A stretch of 64,000 nt of DNA. It comes from Alphaproteobacteria bacterium UBA3635 (GTDB lineage: Bacteria; Pseudomonadota; Alphaproteobacteria; Rs-D84). Positions 20,953 through 53,952 of this stretch are shown in pieces. Under the pieces are notes generated by a model that made no database searches, had not been told where the DNA came from, and was given only the letters and a program-made list of their open reading frames with translations. The stretch's first letter is position 1, and each line of letters begins with the position of its first letter. Location of the stretch: assembly GCA_002373935.1 (NCBI GenBank), contig DFKW01000006.1:3149-67148 (forward strand), given 5' to 3'. A program made the translations under genes and the position numbers.

Positions 20953-20972
20953 TGGTGCGGGCGAAGGGAATC
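20953..20972 (-). repeat. 20-bp direct duplicate of the tRNA-Gly 3' end
   Basis: tggtgcgggcgaagggaatc is identical to 21052-21071. Confidence 0.9.
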
Positions 20973-21051: not shown

Positions 21052-21125
21052 TGGTGCGGGCGAAGGGAATCGAACCCTCGTCTAAAGCTTGGGAAGCTTT
21101 CGTGCTGCCATTATACCACGCCCGC
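21052..21125 (-). tRNA. tRNA-Gly (anticodon CCC)
   Basis: 74 nt. GCGGGCG/CGCCCGC acceptor stem, TTCGATT T-loop, anticodon loop TTCCCAA, encoded CCA. One mismatch in the D-stem. Confidence 0.9.
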
Positions 21126-28175: not shown

Positions 28176-28210
28176 CAGTTTTCAGAGTACAGAGTGCAGA
28201 GTTCAATTAT
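28176..28210 (+). repeat. Tandem heptamer array (CAGAGTN x5)
   Basis: CAGTTTT CAGAGTA CAGAGTG CAGAGTT CAATTAT. Confidence 0.85.
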
Positions 28211-28238
28211 TGTGTCGGTCGTGGACCGACAACGTTAT

Positions 28239-28325
28239 TTATGTGTTTTGACGGCGGTCAATGCCAACCCACGGTGCAGCAATGCACACAGCAAATCCGG
28301 CGGAATTGATTAAAACAATAGACAT
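28239..28325 (-). pseudogene. Internally deleted, frameshifted remnant of the 72-aa XRE gene
   Basis: Aligns to both ends of 38794..39012 but lacks ~130 bp internally. A 28-codon stub remains behind an intact AGGAGG RBS. Confidence 0.8.
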
Positions 28326-28373
28326 CATCGAACCTCCTGTTTTTATTTATCACCGCCAGGATGGCGGATTCAC

Positions 28374-28445
28374 AACTGCCCCGTCACCCTGACGGGTGCC
28401 ACCCCTTCTTTTTGTGCTGGCGCACAGAAAAGACGGGGAATGTCC
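28374..28445. repeat. 72-nt two-hairpin module (copy 1 of 4)
   Basis: aactgcccc - variable hairpin - cacccc - invariant imperfect hairpin CCCCTTCTTTTTGTGC tggc GCACAGAAAAGACGGGG - aatgtcc. Confidence 0.85.
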
Positions 28446-28537
28446 AGAGATAAAAATCATAGTGCAACAACTGCACTCTGCCTGCGCCCCATAGCCCAAC
28501 GGGCGCCGGGGTGAACTTTGCACTCTGAACTTTGAAT

Positions 28538-28690
28538 AAAAAATACCGCGGAAAAAGCGCGGTTGGAGGCCAGAAAACTACTACAGAGTGTAGTGCCGCT
28601 TATTCAATATATTCGCGACCCTCCAACCAACTGGGTGGAGTTTTCTCTGTACAAGGTTTTTCTGGACCCACATTGGCAACACACCAATGC
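28538..28690 (-). ncRNA. Candidate structured RNA of ~150 nt (copy 1), unknown class
   Basis: Promoter TTGCAA-17-TAAAAT (28725-28697) and terminator ACCGCG/CGCGGT plus U-run (28563-28538). Helices covary with copy 2. Confidence 0.6.
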
Positions 28691-28726
28691 AGATATATTT
28701 TAACCGACAAAGTATAAATTTGCAAA

Positions 28727-30379
28727 TTATTTTATCAATGTTTTTGCGGTGGCGATGGATTCAGGTGTTATGTCGGCGCCACTGATTATGCGGGCGATTT
28801 CGTTCACACGTTCGTCACCCGTGATTTCCACAACAGATGTCGTTGTTTTGTCGCCGTCTGTTGATTTTGATATTTTATAATGACGGTCGGCAAAGCCCGC
28901 AACCTGGGCCGAGTGGGTTATAACAATTGATTGTGCATTTTGCGACAATTTATTCAAACGTGCACCAACCGCGGATGCGGTTGCGCCACTGATACCCGTA
29001 TCAATTTCATCAAACACAAATGTGTGTGCGTCCGCCCCGCCCGCCAAAACCACGCGCAGCGCCAACATAAAACGCGCCAATTCACCACCAGATGCCGATT
29101 TGTTCAATGGTGCAAATGGCATGCCGGGATTTGTTTTAATCATAAATACAACATCGTCCACACCGTTGGCGGTTGGGTTTGCGTTTGTAATTTCAACCAT
29201 AAAATCCGCAGACCCCAATTTCAAATCCGGCAATTCTGACAAAATACGTGTTCTGATTGCCGCAGATGCATCCGCCCGCATTTTGGATAATTTGTGTGCG
29301 GCATCATTGAATTGTTTTTTTGCGCCCGTCAATTCGTGTTGTAATTTTTGCAATTCGGCATCGGAATTATCGATTGCATTTAATGCCATTTCCATATCGC
29401 GTAATTTATTCGGTAATTCGTCCGGCAAAACACGATGTTTGCGTGCCAAACTGCGAATTGCAAACAGACGTTCCTCGACATCATCAATTGTGCCAATGTC
29501 CGGTGCGTCCGGTTTAATAGATTCCGCCACATCTGCAATATTTTGTGCAACATTATACAATGTATCGATTTGTTCCGCATACGGGTTTTCGCCATCGCCG
29601 TGCAACCGTTCCAAAATATGCGCAACATCGCAAACAAGTGAATCCAACGAATTCCCGTTCGGATTCAACGCATTTTGTGCATCGTTCAAAATTGCGGTAT
29701 TTTTTTCCGCGTTCATCATATTTGCACGAATTGTCGCCAATTCGGCTTCTTCGCCGGGTTTGACATTTAACGCACGCAATTCGGCAACATTGTGTTCCAA
29801 AAATTCGTGTTCAGATGCCGCGCGACTAACCAATTCTTGCAATTCAGATAACCGGGTTTCGATTGTGTGCATTGTGTTGTATGATTCACGGACAGATTTT
29901 TGCACATCTGTGAACCCTGCAATATTTAATGCGGCAAATGCGTCCAATGTTGGACGATGTGTTGCCGGGTTTAACAATGTATGATTTGCAAACTGACCAT
30001 GGATTTCAACCAATGCATCGCCAACCATTTTCAACACACGCACCGACACGGGTGTATCGTTTATCCATGCGCGACTTTTCCCGTCCGACGACAAAGTGCG
30101 ACGCAACACAACGGTATCATCCACATCCAGTCCATTTTCCATCAATATATTTTTAACATTATCAGACACAGATGTAAATTCCGCCGTGGACGCGCCCACA
30201 TCGCACCCGGCACGCACCAGGCCGGCATCACTGCGCGCACCCAATGCCAAAGACAATGCATCCATTAAAATACTTTTGCCCGCACCCGTTTCACCGGTTA
30301 AAACATTTAATCCACCACCGAATTCCAAATTCAGTTTTTCAATTAAAACTATATTAGAAATATTTAATGATGTCAGCAT
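28727..30379 (-). CDS. recN: DNA repair protein RecN
   Basis: 550 aa with N-terminal LTGETGAGKSILMDAL and an SMC-like coiled coil. Confidence 0.95.
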   Translation of the reverse strand: MLTSLNISNIVLIEKLNLEFGGGLNVLTGETGAGKSILMDALSLALGARSDAGLVRAGCDVGASTAEFTSVSDNVKNILMENGLDVDDTVVLRRTLSSDGKSRAWINDTPVSVRVLKMVGDALVEIHGQFANHTLLNPATHRPTLDAFAALNIAGFTDVQKSVRESYNTMHTIETRLSELQELVSRAASEHEFLEHNVAELRALNVKPGEEAELATIRANMMNAEKNTAILNDAQNALNPNGNSLDSLVCDVAHILERLHGDGENPYAEQIDTLYNVAQNIADVAESIKPDAPDIGTIDDVEERLFAIRSLARKHRVLPDELPNKLRDMEMALNAIDNSDAELQKLQHELTGAKKQFNDAAHKLSKMRADASAAIRTRILSELPDLKLGSADFMVEITNANPTANGVDDVVFMIKTNPGMPFAPLNKSASGGELARFMLALRVVLAGGADAHTFVFDEIDTGISGATASAVGARLNKLSQNAQSIVITHSAQVAGFADRHYKISKSTDGDKTTTSVVEITGDERVNEIARIISGADITPESIATAKTLIK

Positions 30380-38478: not shown

Positions 38479-38751
38479 ATGAACAAACAACAATTGATTG
38501 AAGCAATCGCAAACGAAGTCGAAGTTACAAAAGCAACTGCTGCTTCTTGCTTGGATGCATTTATCAACACTGTTACCAAAGTTTTGAAAAAGAAAGGCGA
38601 AGTTCGCTTGGTTGGTTTTGGTACATTTACATCTGCAAAACGCAAAGCAACAACTGGCCGCAACCCACAAACTGGTGCTGCGATTAAGATTCCTGCGTCT
38701 GTTCAACCAAAATTCAAACCTGGTAAAGCTTTGAAAGATGCTTTGAACTAA
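38479..38751 (+). CDS. hup: Nucleoid protein HU
   Basis: 90 aa: MNKQQLIEAIA...GFGTF...RKATTGRNPQTG. Confidence 0.95.
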   Translation: MNKQQLIEAIANEVEVTKATAASCLDAFINTVTKVLKKKGEVRLVGFGTFTSAKRKATTGRNPQTGAAIKIPASVQPKFKPGKALKDALN

Positions 38752-38793
38752 AGAGCAATCGAAATCAAAAAAAACGCCCAATCGGGCGTTTTT

Positions 38794-39012
38794 TTATTTA
38801 TGTGTTTTGACGGCGGTCAATGCCAATCCACGATGCAGCAACGCGCAGAGCAAATCCGGCGGAATTGGTAATCGCCCAATTTCATACAGGTACAAATCGT
38901 GCGACGATATTTTCAAAATTTCCGCCACGGTGGCTTTATTCATATGCAATGATTTACGCGCCCGGCGCAGTTGTTGTCCATAGGCACGCGCATCAATTAA
39001 AACAATAGACAT
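38794..39012 (-). CDS. Small XRE-family HTH protein (72 aa)
   Basis: LRRARKSLHMNKATVAEILKISSHDLYLYEIGR HTH. RBS GGAGGAG. Terminator at 38775-38788. Confidence 0.75.
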   Translation of the reverse strand: MSIVLIDARAYGQQLRRARKSLHMNKATVAEILKISSHDLYLYEIGRLPIPPDLLCALLHRGLALTAVKTHK

Positions 39013-39222
39013 TTCTCTCCTCCATTTTTATTTATCACCGCCAGGATGGCGGATTCACAACTGCCCCGTCACCCTGACGGGTGCCACCCCTTCTTTTTGT
39101 GCTGGCGCACAGAAAAGACGGGGAATGTCCAGAGATAAAAATCATAGTGCAACAACTGCACTCTGCCTGCGCCCCATAGCCCAACGGGCGACGGGGTGAA
39201 CTTTGCACTCTGAACTTTGAAT
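39013..39222 (-). promoter_or_regulatory. Multi-hairpin 5' leader of the XRE gene, containing heptamer blocks and the 72-nt module (39059-39130)
   Basis: Successive hairpins: CCCC..GCCC gtt GGGC..GGGG, AGTGCA/TGCACT, the module hairpins, and CCGCCA/TGGCGG. About 165 nt is identical to 28341-28505. Confidence 0.6.
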
Positions 39223-39375
39223 AAAAAATACCGCGGGAAAAGCGCGGTTGGAGGCAAGAAAAACTACCATAGAGTGTAGCGTCGCTTATTCGAATATTCA
39301 CGACCCTCCAACCAACTGGGTGGAGTTTTCTCTATGCAAGGGTTTTCTTGTCCCACATTGGCAACACACCAATGC
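39223..39375 (-). ncRNA. Candidate structured RNA of ~150 nt (copy 2), unknown class; possibly a cis-acting attenuator
   Basis: Lies between promoter 39410-39382 and terminator 39248-39223. Three helices are supported by compensatory or wobble changes against copy 1. Confidence 0.6.
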
Positions 39376-39381
39376 AGACAT

Positions 39382-39410
39382 ATTTTAACCGATAAAATAT
39401 GATTTTGCAA
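39382..39410 (-). promoter_or_regulatory. Sigma-70-type promoter of the candidate RNA
   Basis: TTGCAA (39410-39405), 17-nt spacer, TAAAAT (39387-39382). Confidence 0.65.
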
Positions 39411-39464
39411 ATTATTATTAATAATTCATTATATGAAAAAAACCGCCCGATTGGGCGGTTTTGG

Positions 39465-40448
39465 TTAAAACCATTTCCATGGTTGAAATACACTTAACAG
39501 ACTCATCGCGGTACGGCGGTCGGCGTATGTATGACCACAACGCGGACACACCAAGAACGGCGCGATTACGGCCTTGTACTTTTTGTATATCAACGACCAG
39601 ATGTATAATCCCGCCGCCCATGCCGCAATCACCAATCCCCACGCGACATAGTTAAAATAACTGTTCACGGTGCGGGTCAAAATTTGCACCACGCCCAGGT
39701 CGGATTTTTCCAAATCGTTATAGATTTTGACACCAACGGGCCAACTGGACGGACGCCATGGATACACGTGTTTGATTCCATAATCGGTCAATAATGTTGT
39801 CCCCAGCCCGCCGGATGCCTTGTCCAATTCTTTTTTGATTGCGGCATCGATGATTTTATCAACCTCTATCTGGGTCAGTTTTGTCAATTCGCTTTGCACT
39901 TTGTCCAATTGTTTGTTCACCATGGCGGCGGTATCGTCCACACGTGCGATACCCTTGTTTGCCTGGGCAATGCCAGAGTCGGCTTTGTCAACGACTTTGT
40001 CCACGGCATCGGTTTTAACACCAAACATATTCGCCAGACCCGTCAATTTTTTAACACTGCCCGTGGTTTGGGATGCCTTGGCCGTGGTATCTTTTGCTTT
40101 GGCCGTGGTGTCCGTCACTTTATCAACCGCACCCTGGGCCAATTTAACCTTGTCAATTGCCATTGCAACCGGTTTTTCCAGGTTGATTGCATCCTTGATC
40201 CCCGACAGCAGGCGCGCGTATTGTTCCTGGATATTTCTTTGCAGGTCAAAGAACATCGACACGACCATTGATTTTTTTATCGGACCCGCGTAATGATGTT
40301 TTACATATAATGGAAAACTGAATACAAATGCCAACCAAATAACCGATACAATCGCAAATGTGCGTTTTGCACCCTTTATCACAGACGGTTTTTTTGCAAC
40401 GGTTTTTGCACCGTGCATATCGATAACTTCAACTTCTTTTTTTGCCAT
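39465..40448 (-). CDS. Membrane protein with central coiled-coil/repeat region, unknown family
   Basis: 327 aa with TM segments near both ends, a Lys/Asp/Thr/Ala-rich centre and C-terminal CPRCGH. Confidence 0.65.
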   Translation of the reverse strand: MAKKEVEVIDMHGAKTVAKKPSVIKGAKRTFAIVSVIWLAFVFSFPLYVKHHYAGPIKKSMVVSMFFDLQRNIQEQYARLLSGIKDAINLEKPVAMAIDKVKLAQGAVDKVTDTTAKAKDTTAKASQTTGSVKKLTGLANMFGVKTDAVDKVVDKADSGIAQANKGIARVDDTAAMVNKQLDKVQSELTKLTQIEVDKIIDAAIKKELDKASGGLGTTLLTDYGIKHVYPWRPSSWPVGVKIYNDLEKSDLGVVQILTRTVNSYFNYVAWGLVIAAWAAGLYIWSLIYKKYKAVIAPFLVCPRCGHTYADRRTAMSLLSVFQPWKWF

Positions 40449-49478: not shown

Positions 49479-49525
49479 TATAATTGTTTCTTCTAAAAAA
49501 ATCCGCCCGTTTGGGCGGTTTTTTT

Positions 49526-49560
49526 CAGTGTTCAAAGTGCAGAGTTCAGAGTGCAGTTGA
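49526..49560 (+). repeat. Tandem heptamer array (x5)
   Basis: CAGTGTT CAAAGTG CAGAGTT CAGAGTG CAGTTGA, immediately after the rlpA terminator (49503-49525). Confidence 0.85.
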
Positions 49561-49580
49561 TGAATAATTATTATTTCGGA

Positions 49581-49686
49581 CATTTCCCGTCGCCAATTTT
49601 TACCGAAGCAACGCGAGGATTAAAAATTGAGCATCGCGCCGAATTCCGCCACATAAAAAACACCACGATTTCTCGTGGTGTTTTTT
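49581..49686 (+). ncRNA. Candidate short RNA (~105 nt) ending at a bidirectional terminator
   Basis: Possible promoter TTCAGA-18-TATTAT (49545-49574), internal hairpin CGCGA/TCGCG, and terminator CACCACGA/TCGTGGTG plus T-run (49661-49686). Confidence 0.3.
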
Positions 49687-49786: not shown

Positions 49787-51247
49787 TTACTCCACCACCG
49801 GACCGGCGGTAAAAGTCCCGGTGCCTGCATTGGTATAAAATCTATCGTTGACCAAATCATACATTCCCAACACACCGTCGCTGTTGCGTTTTACAGGAAT
49901 CATATTGCGAACCAAAATGTCATTTTCGTAAATGCTAAATTCGTATACTTGCACTTTATTATTGGTGCTCTCTATCGACGGTCGCCATCTCTGAAAGATA
50001 TAAAAAGGTCGATTATCTGTATCTGGAATCGTTGCATTATTAGTCAATTTCACATCACCGTTCACAGAAAATTCTGTTGCAGATAACGATAATTTGTTTT
50101 TTTCTAGCATATTAACATTCTCTGCATGAAGCCACGTTCCAGCTGGGTCGAATTTGATTTCGGCAGTACTATCGTCCAAAGAATTTATAACAAGTAAAGC
50201 ATCACTAGAAACGCCTGTTGTTCCACGTCCTGAACCAACAATATTTACATTACCCGCACCAGAGTCAACTTTCGCGACAATTTCTATACGTGTTTTTGAT
50301 GTTGGAGAATAATTCGTGTTTATGTAAGCGTTCCCATCAGAACGCAAATATTCCAACTCTGTATAACCCTCGGGCAGGCAATGCGCACTGCTGCAAATCT
50401 CGTACCAATGCGGAACGCCACTCGCATCTTCGACCAACAGGCATTTCTTGCCGGCGGGGCATTTTTCATTGTCGTCAGCAATGTCGTTTGGGCGGGTTTG
50501 TTTGCCCGATTGCAAAGTCGCGATACTCGCCGCCTGAGATATCGTGTTTGACACGACCGTATTCACCGTCGCAACCGCCGCCGCCAACCGTGAGTTCAAA
50601 TCACTAAACTGTGTTTCCACATATTTTGTCGTGGCAATTTTGATTTCTGCAATCGGTCCGGCAATAAACGAACCCGAACCGGCATTGGTATAGAACTGCC
50701 CACCAACCGTATCATACATCCCAATCGCAGAATCACTGTTCCGTTTCGCAGGGATAAAGTTTCCGATTACGCGCCCAGCAGAATCTTTTGCAACAAAATT
50801 ATAAACCTTCTCTTTTGACGGATAGTTGCCACCAACAACCGCGAACAAACCAAAACCAGTATTATTGTGATAGCTGCCTAATGAGTGTTCGTTTTCCAAA
50901 TTTTCGTTAACATATAGCTTTGATTTGCTACCACTAATTACTAATTTTGCATTATAAATTGTGTTTAATGTTACAGTTGTTCTGCCACGGCTCATATTCC
51001 ACCAATATAAGTCACTATCTATACCCATTTGTGCATCAGAACCCCAACCATTCATTTGATACGCGCCAAATAAGCCTGAATACGATAAACGTATTTCAAA
51101 TGATGAGCCGTCTGTACCAAAAATCCCTGTATCAATATATTGGGTTCCTGTACTTTCGATGTATTCCAACTCCGTATACCCCGCCGGCAGCGCCCACGAT
51201 GGAATTGTGAATAATAACCCCAACATCGCACATAAAAGTTTTTTCAT
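49787..51247 (-). CDS. Secreted protein with two lectin/tail-fibre-like repeat domains
   Basis: Start trimmed to MKKLLCAMLGLLFTIPSWA (signal peptide). Internal duplication: LPAGYTELEYIESTGTQYIDTG...FYTNAGSGSFIAGP versus LPEGYTELEYLRSDGNAYINT...FYTNAGTGTFTAGP. Confidence 0.75.
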   Translation of the reverse strand: MKKLLCAMLGLLFTIPSWALPAGYTELEYIESTGTQYIDTGIFGTDGSSFEIRLSYSGLFGAYQMNGWGSDAQMGIDSDLYWWNMSRGRTTVTLNTIYNAKLVISGSKSKLYVNENLENEHSLGSYHNNTGFGLFAVVGGNYPSKEKVYNFVAKDSAGRVIGNFIPAKRNSDSAIGMYDTVGGQFYTNAGSGSFIAGPIAEIKIATTKYVETQFSDLNSRLAAAVATVNTVVSNTISQAASIATLQSGKQTRPNDIADDNEKCPAGKKCLLVEDASGVPHWYEICSSAHCLPEGYTELEYLRSDGNAYINTNYSPTSKTRIEIVAKVDSGAGNVNIVGSGRGTTGVSSDALLVINSLDDSTAEIKFDPAGTWLHAENVNMLEKNKLSLSATEFSVNGDVKLTNNATIPDTDNRPFYIFQRWRPSIESTNNKVQVYEFSIYENDILVRNMIPVKRNSDGVLGMYDLVNDRFYTNAGTGTFTAGPVVE

Positions 51248-51650
51248 TTCTTTCTCCCCGTTCTTTTGGTTCTGCGTTTTTTTGTGAAAAATTTTCACAA
51301 AAAAAGCGCCATCAACAGGAAGATGCGCGGCAGGGGTGTTAGAAAAATCAGTACAACAATGACCCCATATGCATTACTGCATACGGCACCCACGCCAAAC
51401 CGTAAACGGGTCGATAGCGGGTTTTTTATACAGGGGTAAAATTCACATTTCTATATGGTGAAAAAAATTTTTCCTAAAAATTCCAACACCGAAATAAAAA
51501 TGTCGGTGCAAAATATGACGGCAACAAACACAGCCCCGCCGAATCGAATCGGGCGAGCATGGGAGAGTTACGATGCAAATCTTGCACCGGTTGTACTGGA
51601 CTTTTCTAAGGTCCTTGTCCGAAATCAACTCCCTGGTGATTTCTGATGTC

Positions 51651-51680
51651 ATTATAGAAAATGGAATTTATTTATTGCAA
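51651..51680 (-). promoter_or_regulatory. Near-consensus sigma-70 promoter reading toward the lectin-like gene
   Basis: TTGCAA (51680-51675), 18-nt spacer, TATAAT (51656-51651), about 400 nt upstream of the start codon. Confidence 0.6.
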
Positions 51681-51691
51681 GAATATTTTTG

Positions 51692-51862
51692 AACTGCCCC
51701 ACCGGCTACGCCGGTCCCCCCCCTTCTTTTTGTGCTGGCGCACAGAAAAGACGGGGAATATCCAGAGTCGGAGGTGCAATAAAATTTTTGAACTGCCCCG
51801 TCCCGCTTTCGCGGTCCACCCCTTCTTTTTGTGCTGGCGCACAGAAAAGACGGGGAATATCC
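51692..51862. repeat. Two tandem copies of the 72-nt two-hairpin module (51692-51763, 51791-51862; 99-nt period)
   Basis: Same consensus as 28374-28445 and 39059-39130. The first hairpin differs in each copy but stays paired. Confidence 0.9.
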
Positions 51863-51883
51863 GATAATAAATAATTATTTTCT

Positions 51884-51918
51884 ATAACTGAACTCTGCAC
51901 TCTGAAAACTGAAAACTA
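51884..51918 (-). repeat. Tandem heptamer array (x5)
   Basis: Read on the minus strand: TAGTTTT CAGTTTT CAGAGTG CAGAGTT CAGTTAT. It abuts the ligA terminator (51921-51935). Confidence 0.85.
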
Positions 51919-51936
51919 AAAATAATCCCGACGGGA

Positions 51937-53952
<2,016 letters not shown>

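Follow-up and report, generated by a model that had tools for sequence, protein, structure and literature searches.

What is encoded in the hairpin-rich DNA that precedes a small regulatory gene in the genome of Alphaproteobacteria bacterium UBA3635? The gene lies in a 64,000-nucleotide (nt) stretch of DNA (contig DFKW01000006.1, positions 3,149 to 67,148; hereafter the window) and encodes a protein of 72 amino acids (aa) of the XRE type of helix-turn-helix (HTH) proteins. An earlier note, made from the sequence alone, had read the upstream DNA as roughly 370 nt of structured RNA that is present twice in the window, by eye fits none of the common RNA classes and might form a regulatory or mobile module with the gene. 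Comparison with related loci separates this leader into a conserved, structured RNA of about 150 nt, which ends in an intrinsic terminator, and a part of about 210 nt, which is a repeat insertion absent from most relatives and had been conflated with the RNA. Judged by sequence and fold, the conserved RNA is remotely related to sRNA-Xcc1 and to the c4/CI class of antisense RNAs, and lies outside every current Rfam family.

A conserved RNA with a c4-like core

The structured RNA of the first copy (copy A) extends from its predicted start to the U-run of the terminator (39224–39376, minus strand, as are all coordinates of the two copies given below) and is recognized by R1, the covariance model of the family, with 133 bits (E = 2e-30). 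That this ~150-nt RNA, which the earlier note had proposed, exists and is also conserved is borne out by three lines of evidence, namely folding, covariation and the model itself. Compared with shuffled sequences, folding gives z = -3.0 for copy A and z = -4.2 for copy B. In a MAFFT alignment of the family, 95.6% of the cells are paired, compared with 81.7% in shuffles, and the covariation score of 0.431 stands against 0.178 for shuffled alignments (reached by none of 500 shuffles) and 0.05–0.10 for slid controls. Accordingly, homologous loci do have conserved helices, the absence of which the earlier note had named among the outcomes that would refute it.

The 3′ half of the RNA forms a c4-like core, in which a closing helix of 9 bp between box 2 and box 3 surrounds two hairpins. 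Box 2 (GGUUGGAGGG, 39304–39313) provides the 5′ strand of the closing helix, as seen in the RNAalifold consensus, aligns to the outer helix of Rfam sRNA-Xcc1 and has box 1 and box 3 as alternative partners. It is followed by hairpin P5 (39281–39304) with the conserved loop GAAUAU..GAAUAAG, in which four of five pairs covary, and by hairpin P6 (39263–39280), whose stem covaries across the family, being either CUA/UAG or CAAUU/AAUUG. The P6 loop CUCUAUG (39268–39274) constitutes the element b′, the 3′ arm of the long-range helix P3, and the junction before box 3 harbors the element a′ (UUUUCUUG, 39255–39262), the 3′ arm of the long-range helix PK1. Box 3 (CCUCCAACC, 39246–39254) closes the core as the 3′ strand, and its last three nucleotides are at the same time the first three of the terminator stem. 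The terminator itself, ACCGCG-CUUUUCC-CGCGGU followed by a U-run, occupies positions 39221–39248.

The 5′ half carries the a1 and b1 boxes, which are complementary to a′ and b′ and give rise to PK1 and P3, respectively. It starts with hairpin P1 (GCAUUGG-UGUGUUG-CCAAUGU, 39355–39375), which displays double compensatory changes in seven of eight pairs. The adjacent hairpin P2a (GGG/CCC, 39340–39354) presents the a1 box CAAGAAAA (39343–39350), the 5′ arm of PK1, in its loop; here a double change was found at one pair in one sequence of the A3 alignment, and GAGG/CCUC variants were seen by eye. The b1 box CAUAGAG (39330–39336) forms the 5′ arm of P3. Between b1 and the core lies box 1 (CUCCACC, 39319–39325), which forms hairpin P4 with box 2; across the family, P4 pairs box 1 CUCCAMC with box 2 GUUGGAG.

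Both long-range helices are specific to their locus. PK1 exists in 14 distinct arm variants, with at least seven contiguous pairs in 50 of 51 sequences, and the number of contiguous pairs is 7.8 for arms of the same locus compared with 4.2 for arms of different loci. P3 is a helix of 7–10 bp, whose sequence differs at almost every locus and whose duplex energy amounts to -9.4 kcal/mol within loci and -4.4 kcal/mol between loci. The identity of the P3 arms is only about 0.6, compared with 0.8–0.9 for the rest of the RNA, and the within-genome paralogues that were compared carry different b arms; in one such pair the identity is 0.92 outside the arms and 0.48 inside.

A second copy (copy B) is situated about 10.7 kb from the first. 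Alignment to copy A places its promoter at 28697–28725 (-35 element 28720–28725, -10 element 28697–28702), and the intact RNA that follows (28539–28691) scores 138 bits with R1. Between the two copies, the RNA part shows about 91% identity, with compensatory changes in PK1, P3 and P5. An R1 search of the window yielded no further copy, the next-best match reaching 17 bits, and against this value the scores of 133 and 138 bits place the duplication far beyond chance. The second copy that the earlier note had located at 28235–28731 is thus present with an intact RNA, but its open reading frame (ORF) is not: owing to an internal deletion of 128 nt and a frameshift, the XRE gene is reduced to a pseudogene (28235–28328) with an ORF of 29 aa.

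A leader peptide or other small ORF within the RNA was considered and ruled out. Copy B has ATA in place of the ATG of copy A, conservation is lacking for the ORF behind an SD-like GGAGGG (SD, Shine-Dalgarno sequence), and the P5 stem shows RNA-type covariation.

Distribution of the RNA family

A protein-guided scan recovered 11 loci from four rumen species known from metagenome-assembled genomes (MAGs) and labelled 'uncultured proteobacterium', with 2–3 loci per genome; the module of RNA and XRE gene suspected in the earlier note is therefore conserved in at least four related MAG species. With a search pattern derived from two conserved boxes, 45 metagenome stretches were retrieved, of which 39 contain true members. 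The other six (L016, L029, L036, L057, L059 and L060), from high-GC or unrelated contigs, are chance matches to the pattern and none of them was found by R1; a weak R1 match at L038:397–571 turned out to be the end of a coding region with a terminator. In total, about 50 distinct members were recovered from uncultured rumen or gut Alphaproteobacteria, and family members score 104–158 bits with R1. Only the protein-ascertained loci (L005–L015), L046 and L189–L193 are free of search-pattern bias on boxes 2 and 3. A literature search for RF32 non-coding RNAs or XRE-linked riboswitch candidates returned nothing relevant.

The family comprises two types, both of which are present in organisms closely related to that of the window. 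Type A members, including the two copies of the window, precede small XRE genes, and this also applies to divergent members (L017, L023, L024, L048 and L049). A promoter of the copy A type is kept upstream of all type A members. Type B members possess one extra hairpin and precede genes for Cys-rich proteins of 110–460 aa with a signal peptide. The copies occupy chromosomal sites whose synteny is maintained between species, following recN, infC, pnp, hup or an OmpA-like gene, and L046 shares with the window, in synteny, both hup and a membrane-protein gene of 171 aa. With copies at such syntenic sites, the mobile module considered in the earlier note is not demonstrable. Co-occurrence of the RNA with homologues of the 72-aa protein can be observed at related loci, but it is not strict, since each partner decays alone (L014, L007 and L015) and type B members have no linked XRE gene.

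The 72-aa protein of the window is also encoded, in identical form, on other contigs. Searches of Pfam, NCBIfam and PDB profiles gave sub-threshold generic HTH matches only, with 23.1 bits for Pfam HTH_31 (cut-off 27) and E = 0.02 for the best PDB profile, and the protein falls into 10 clusters only, all of them from Alphaproteobacteria MAGs. Its AlphaFold2 model (predicted local distance difference test score of 76) resembles an XRE fold but comprises four helices, compared with five in the HTH fold of Cro/C1 proteins, and the top structural neighbors identified by Foldseek are XRE regulators, ClgR, C.AhdI, HipB and Aca2 (template modelling scores of 0.65–0.74, E ≥ 0.01). Going by this model, which agrees with the XRE assignment of the earlier note, the product is probably a divergent HTH protein of the Cro/C1 type. 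Its role might be to autoregulate the leader, or it might be a mere output of the switch proposed below.

Several of the proteins encoded behind type B leaders share a C-terminal Cys motif, YCWC..W..C..C. The proteins at L026, L025, L028, L033, L039, L046:2075–3460, L053 and L058 constitute a secreted Cys-rich family with the C-terminal motif ..YCWC..W[VL][FY]..C..C..C.., and each gene is preceded by a leader RNA of its own. A Pfam search with 10 type B downstream proteins returned a marginal Listeria-Bacteroides repeat in four of them and nothing else.

Kinship with sRNA-Xcc1 and phage immunity RNAs

At gathering thresholds, an Rfam scan of the whole window detects only a tRNA-Gly, and a permissive scan of 38700–39500 (E ≤ 10) returns only terminator-driven noise, with neither sRNA-Xcc1 nor C4 among the matches. 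The statement of the earlier note that the RNA fits none of the common classes hence holds for Rfam families at threshold, but not for remote relationship. The divergent member L048, the best-scoring one of the family, matches sRNA-Xcc1 (RF02221), an 88-nt small RNA (sRNA) of Xanthomonas campestris that precedes symE in integron cassettes and antirepressor genes in prophages, with 33 bits (E = 2.5e-4 in a 221-nt search; cut-off 53 bits), and this match spans exactly the region from box 2 to box 3. In the reverse direction, R1 scores 17–31 bits, again over box 2 to box 3, on the sRNA-Xcc1 elements of viral contigs (L062–L179) that had been fetched with the Rfam sRNA-Xcc1 consensus; the six contigs that were scanned were confirmed by Rfam with 56–86 bits.

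In the viral sRNA-Xcc1 loci, for example L066, L072, L102 and L151, two variable elements are complementary to boxes located about 100 nt upstream and just downstream. The upstream part is composed of a hairpin with the first box in its loop, the second box and a terminator, and the downstream boxes adjoin the SD of the next gene. Comparison of own-locus with cross-locus complementarity gives p = 2e-9 for the upstream and p = 0.005 for the downstream boxes. Among the genes that follow are, in several loci, those for products judged by eye to be Bro-N/KilA-N-like, and one viral locus matches the 'anti-repressor' region of Stenotrophomonas phage Smp131 and Xylella phage Xfas53. Box 1, assessed by eye only, is seen in some viral loci and not in others and is thus not consistent. 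In the window family, upstream complementarity is likewise locus-specific (-18.3 kcal/mol for own-locus versus -12.0 kcal/mol for cross-locus pairs, p = 1e-22). However, a second pair of target boxes (a2/b2) near the SD of the XRE gene was not found within 130 nt downstream (-14.8 versus -14.6 kcal/mol, p = 0.59), and the SD region is conserved regardless of the arms.

The window family and the phage RNAs are bridged by phage contig L197 (5460–5710), which contains the exact P5 motif of the family and a near-identical closing helix and scores 40 bits with R1. Its canonical layout consists of a1, b1, a terminator, a CAUUGG hairpin resembling P1 of type A members, the core, a2 and b2, the latter overlapping the SD of a gene for an antirepressor-type protein of 392 aa, which is Bro-N-like by eye. 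In the annotation of phage P1, promoter, a1, b1, C4 RNA, a2 and b2 precede icd-ant. P1 scores 68.8 bits with RF01695 and 51 bits with RF03163 (cut-offs 45 and 46.7), and its C4 RNA folds into a closing helix, hairpin 1 and hairpin 2 with b′ in its loop, with a′ in the junction, and the core of the window RNA displays the same topology. In Rfam, C4 and c4-a1b1 are assigned to clan CL00128, whereas sRNA-Xcc1 belongs to no clan.

Alternative folds and proposed attenuation

The choice of partner for box 2 separates two folds of the RNA. The minimum free energy fold of the single sequence comprises PK1, P3, P4, P5 and the terminator. In the RNAalifold fold, box 2 (GGUUGGAGG) pairs with box 3 (CCUCCAACC) and encloses P5 and P6, leaving 3 bp of the terminator. 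Once transcription of copy A has reached the end of box 3, 1.8 kcal/mol separates the two folds, with only nested pairs taken into account. In L046:1837–2053, a divergent member found by the model, the three boxes change jointly to CUCCUGA, GUCAGGAGGG and CCUCCUGACC, which supports the pairing of box 2 with box 1 as well as with box 3. The 5′ arm of the intrinsic terminator overlaps an alternative conserved helix and the regulated ORF lies directly 3′, an arrangement typical of terminator/antiterminator control. Moreover, the distance between the U-run and the ATG amounts to 14–23 nt in 17 loci (207–209 nt in the window, due to the insertion described below), which leaves the downstream gene without room for a promoter of its own.

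On the whole it appears somewhat probable, from comparison of the sequences, that the RNA is a domesticated relative of the c4/CI-type immunity RNAs and acts in cis as a self-addressed transcription attenuator of the XRE gene. In the off-state, box 2 would pair with the upstream box 1 and leave box 3 free, such that the overlapping terminator could form; the product would be the short RNA of about 150 nt. If box 2 paired with box 3 instead, the c4-like fold would arise, the terminator stem of copy A would lose three of its six pairs and transcription would continue past it into the XRE gene. The hypervariable b1/b′ helix would provide a locus-specific address, with accumulated short RNA possibly acting only on nascent transcripts of its own locus. 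Such hypervariability suggests that, as in the heteroimmunity of phages P1 and P7, recognition in trans is important, which would mean that the short RNA exerts feedback specific to its locus. Candidates for the factor that tips the switch are the dose of the RNA, the XRE protein or another factor.

A wider proposal, which we regard as doubtful, is that a phage-immunity RNA has been domesticated as a chromosomal multi-locus set of orthogonal, self-addressed riboregulators, with the corollary that sRNA-Xcc1 is a c4-type immunity RNA with a1b1/a2b2 targets. The terminated RNA of each locus, and that of no paralogue, would then feed back in trans on its own termination. The result would be a locus-specific control that depends on the RNA dose and is possibly bistable or mutually exclusive, exerted, in uncultured Alphaproteobacteria of gut and rumen, on genes for small XRE regulators and for a family of surface proteins that are secreted and Cys-rich.

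Several observations weigh against attenuation by such a domesticated immunity RNA. The joint change of the three boxes rests on one divergent member, and boxes 2 and 3 are invariant in the metagenome set because the search pattern required them to be. PK1 and P3 could form, as pseudoknots, in either fold. Within the window, the 198-nt insertion between terminator and gene carries a terminator-like hairpin (39146–39162), which makes control of the XRE gene by read-through uncertain at this site. The similarity to sRNA-Xcc1 lies below the Rfam threshold and the window copies are unmatched at E ≤ 10; since R1 does not match P1 C4 either, common descent with C4 is deduced from topology alone. Furthermore, the RNA is intact beside a dead XRE gene in copy B, L007 (premature stop) and L015 (truncated) and may therefore have an additional role that is independent of the gene. 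The converse is seen in L014, where the RNA has suffered an internal deletion and the XRE gene is intact, and in L013 and L021, where P3 is degraded and no longer pairs; copy B, L007 and L015 as well as L014, L013 and L021 call for caution with a purely cis-acting RNA. At L046:3507–3663 P3 likewise no longer pairs, and the XRE gene has been lost altogether. The varied decay at these loci indicates that RNA and gene can degenerate independently of each other.

Alternative explanations

The intact RNAs beside dead genes would be readily explained if the RNA were a stand-alone, trans-acting antisense sRNA of the c4/sRNA-Xcc1 type, a terminated or processed molecule of about 150 nt which represses unlinked a2/b2-like mRNAs, with the XRE gene being a mere neighbor. 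A strong promoter and terminator, hypervariable recognition arms and kinship with RNAs that act by base pairing fit this explanation as well. However, no second site for the arms of either copy is present within the 64-kb window, locus-specific complementarity is absent from the 130 nt downstream, and the arms are already satisfied in cis by a1 and b1. Box 1 and the terminator overlap would be left without a role, and in 17 loci there is too little DNA ahead of the gene to hold a separate promoter. Taken together, these points render a stand-alone, trans-acting sRNA unlikely. Control by a protein is less likely still. Here, the 72-aa XRE protein or another factor would bind the leader RNA or DNA and thus regulate its own synthesis. 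The HTH protein Aca2 binds both DNA and its own mRNA, and Aca2 as well as controller C-proteins are among the structural neighbors of the XRE model. In addition, the XRE gene recurs with type A leaders even in the divergent L017, L023, L048 and L049, the conserved internal loop of P5 could be a protein-binding site, and the -35 region of type A promoters sits in a short palindrome, ATTTGCAAAT. Type B leaders, in contrast, lack a linked XRE gene, and since TTGCA-type -35 boxes occur in type B promoters, too, the palindrome may be nothing more than the -35 element. The palindrome formed by box 1 and box 2 was ruled out as a DNA operator because the distance between the boxes is not fixed (3–13 nt).

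Two pseudoknot-like helices within a complex fold supported by covariation, together with a terminator whose sequence is partly shared with an alternative helix, would also be expected of a small-molecule riboswitch, in which an aptamer controls the terminator/antiterminator decision in response to a metabolite or second messenger. The RNA is always located in 5′ leaders, and the regulators and surface proteins downstream resemble the regulons of signalling riboswitches. Against this explanation, two of the main helices are hypervariable addresses and not conserved parts of a binding pocket, the best-conserved architecture is common to antisense RNAs that work by RNA-RNA pairing, and the regulated genes offer no metabolic clue. 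A riboswitch is therefore considered improbable, the most so of the three explanations discussed here.

Repeat insertion and further features of the window

Upstream of the RNA of copy A, a consensus scan finds the promoter at 39382–39410, where the -35 element TTGCAA (39405–39410) and the -10 element TAAAAT (39382–39387) are separated by a spacer of 17 nt. Downstream of the insertion, the SD GGAGGAG (39017–39023) and the 72-aa XRE gene (38794–39012) together occupy 38794–39023, and a bidirectional terminator at 38767–38794 is common to this gene and hup. The locus is flanked by hup and the membrane-protein gene. Promoter, terminator, SD, ORF and flanking genes thus agree with the description in the earlier note, and all of the hairpins which that note had listed between terminator and gene are present as well.

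These hairpins, however, lie outside the conserved unit. The stretch from 39025 to 39220 is a lineage-specific insertion of dispersed repeats resembling miniature inverted-repeat transposable elements (MITEs) or repetitive extragenic palindromic (REP) sequences, multiple copies of which occur independently of the flanking genes. The mosaic consists of heptamer blocks (39197–39219), a nested CCCC hairpin (39172–39196), an AGTGCA hairpin (39146–39162), a two-hairpin module (39059–39134) and a CCGCCA hairpin (39038–39052). Copy B contains the same mosaic with 99.5% identity (28340–28537), whereas the ~198 nt are missing between terminator and SD in most related loci (L001, L003, L006, L008–L013 and others). 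Pieces of the mosaic recur in the window at 51692–51898 and 49522–49591 as well as in L007, L010 (inverted, downstream of the XRE gene), L030, L032 and L046. Consequently, the unit to be explained is reduced to promoter, RNA, terminator and XRE gene, and the impressive multi-hairpin 'leader' turns out to be repeat debris, which may serve as a lesson for annotation. REP- and MITE-like intergenic repeats are likewise short, hairpin-rich and dispersed, and often found beside terminators, in tandem and in either orientation.

Two components of the mosaic display features of their own. The two-hairpin module, about 72–108 nt long, is present in tandem at 51692–51799 and 51791–51898 (minus strand) and in single copies at 39059–39166 and 28374–28481. 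Hairpin 1 is constant, whereas hairpin 2 varies with pairing maintained (CACCC/GGGUG, CCGC/GCGG, ACCGGC/GCCGGU), and the flanking CCCCGUC/GACGGGG could close a three-way junction. The module has no match in Rfam. Because hairpin 2 covaries between copies, the module may have a function of its own and could represent an independent structured element. Arrays of three to five heptamers (CAGAGTK, CAAAGTK, CAGTTTT) are found at 39197–39219, 28176–28204 (inverted), 49522–49549 and 51888–51920 and also in L006, L008, L009, L011 and L046. In either orientation, they directly follow an intrinsic terminator or shortly precede a type A promoter, and they might represent a protein-binding array or the end of a repeat element.

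Elsewhere in the window, an intergenic stretch of about 390 nt (51300–51690, minus strand) upstream of a gene of 503 aa (49787–51298) contains a near-consensus promoter, TTGCAA-N17-TATAAT, and GC-rich hairpins. An Rfam scan of 51150–51960 returned nothing meaningful; the stretch could be another leader or sRNA. At the tRNA-Gly(CCC) gene (21052–21125, minus strand), the 3′-terminal 20 nt (21052–21071) are exactly repeated at 20953–20972, 99 nt away, a duplication such as arises when an element integrates at a tRNA gene.

Comparison with known systems

Among the known systems closest to the window family, sRNA-Xcc1 shares with it a 9-bp closing helix, GNYNGGRGG/CCYCCNRNC, around two hairpins, a conserved A/U-rich first loop, a variable second loop and, ahead of the 3′ strand, a junction of variable sequence, UUUnnAG. 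In both families several copies exist per genome (for sRNA-Xcc1, PMC12189769 and PMC8780938), and the variable elements match boxes upstream. The 5′ end of sRNA-Xcc1 was mapped at the start of the 88-nt RNA (PMC2996969) and aligns to the closing helix in the Rfam model, whereas the only promoter-like site of the window RNA is located about 65 nt further upstream. The a1 and b1 boxes of the window family are therefore predicted to reside with the core in one short transcript, unlike those of sRNA-Xcc1. Further differences are the intrinsic terminator fused to the closing helix and the consistent presence of box 1 in the window family, the second target at the SD of the next gene, which viral sRNA-Xcc1 possesses and the window family lacks, and the genomic context, chromosomal XRE or secreted-protein genes in one case and symE or antirepressor genes in the other.

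The viral sRNA-Xcc1 loci follow the a1b1/a2b2 logic of P1 c4, and the function of the sRNA has so far been described as 'trans-acting, HrpG/HrpX-controlled'. This suggests a testable mechanism for sRNA-Xcc1, namely a/b pairing, specific to each locus, with the SD region of genes of the antirepressor or symE type.

The C4 and c4-a1b1 RNAs of phages P1 and P7 (RF01695 and RF03163) exhibit the same order of parts as the window family, that is promoter, hairpin, hairpin with a1 in its loop, b1, spacer and core, and also have short, variable recognition boxes. These boxes reportedly determine the heteroimmunity of P1 and P7, a finding said to go back to Citron & Schuster 1990 and Lobocka et al. 2004. 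C4 is excised from its precursor by RNase P. In contrast to this common architecture, there is no detectable sequence similarity, given that the window has no C4 match in Rfam and R1 misses P1. Moreover, a2 and b2 of P1 cover the ribosome-binding site of icd and are absent from the window family, and C4 controls a prophage antirepressor instead of chromosomal XRE or secreted-protein genes.

The comparison thereby joins three things that have been filed separately: sRNA-Xcc1, the clan of C4 and c4-a1b1, and a previously unrecognized alphaproteobacterial RNA family. If the proposed attenuation is correct, the design of a phage immunity RNA would have been re-used outside prophages, a built-in terminator would take the place of the downstream target and thus turn an antisense repressor into a cis-acting leader, and such leaders would govern small regulators and paralogous secreted proteins in host-associated bacteria. 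Orthogonal RNA-RNA address pairs from nature would also be of interest for synthetic regulation.

With attenuators and riboswitch leaders in general, the window RNA has in common that helices exclude each other and that one of these overlaps an intrinsic terminator immediately before an ORF; unlike them, it has no evident ligand or leader peptide, and its fold is common to antisense RNAs. A closer counterpart is provided by phage P4, whose CI RNA pairs with the upstream seqA and the downstream seqC and thereby causes premature termination (PMC4825925). In IsrK of Gifsy-1, a homologue of seqA, a short form produced by termination targets the read-through isoform of this locus in trans and controls translation there (PMC4825925). 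Compared by description only, P4 CI and IsrK resemble the window family in that an RNA derived from a leader pairs with a complementary upstream box of the same transcription unit, whereas P4 differs in its additional use of the downstream seqC and in having largely other terminators. By analogy, P4 CI and IsrK can be regarded as the closest mechanistic precedent for a self-addressed attenuator.

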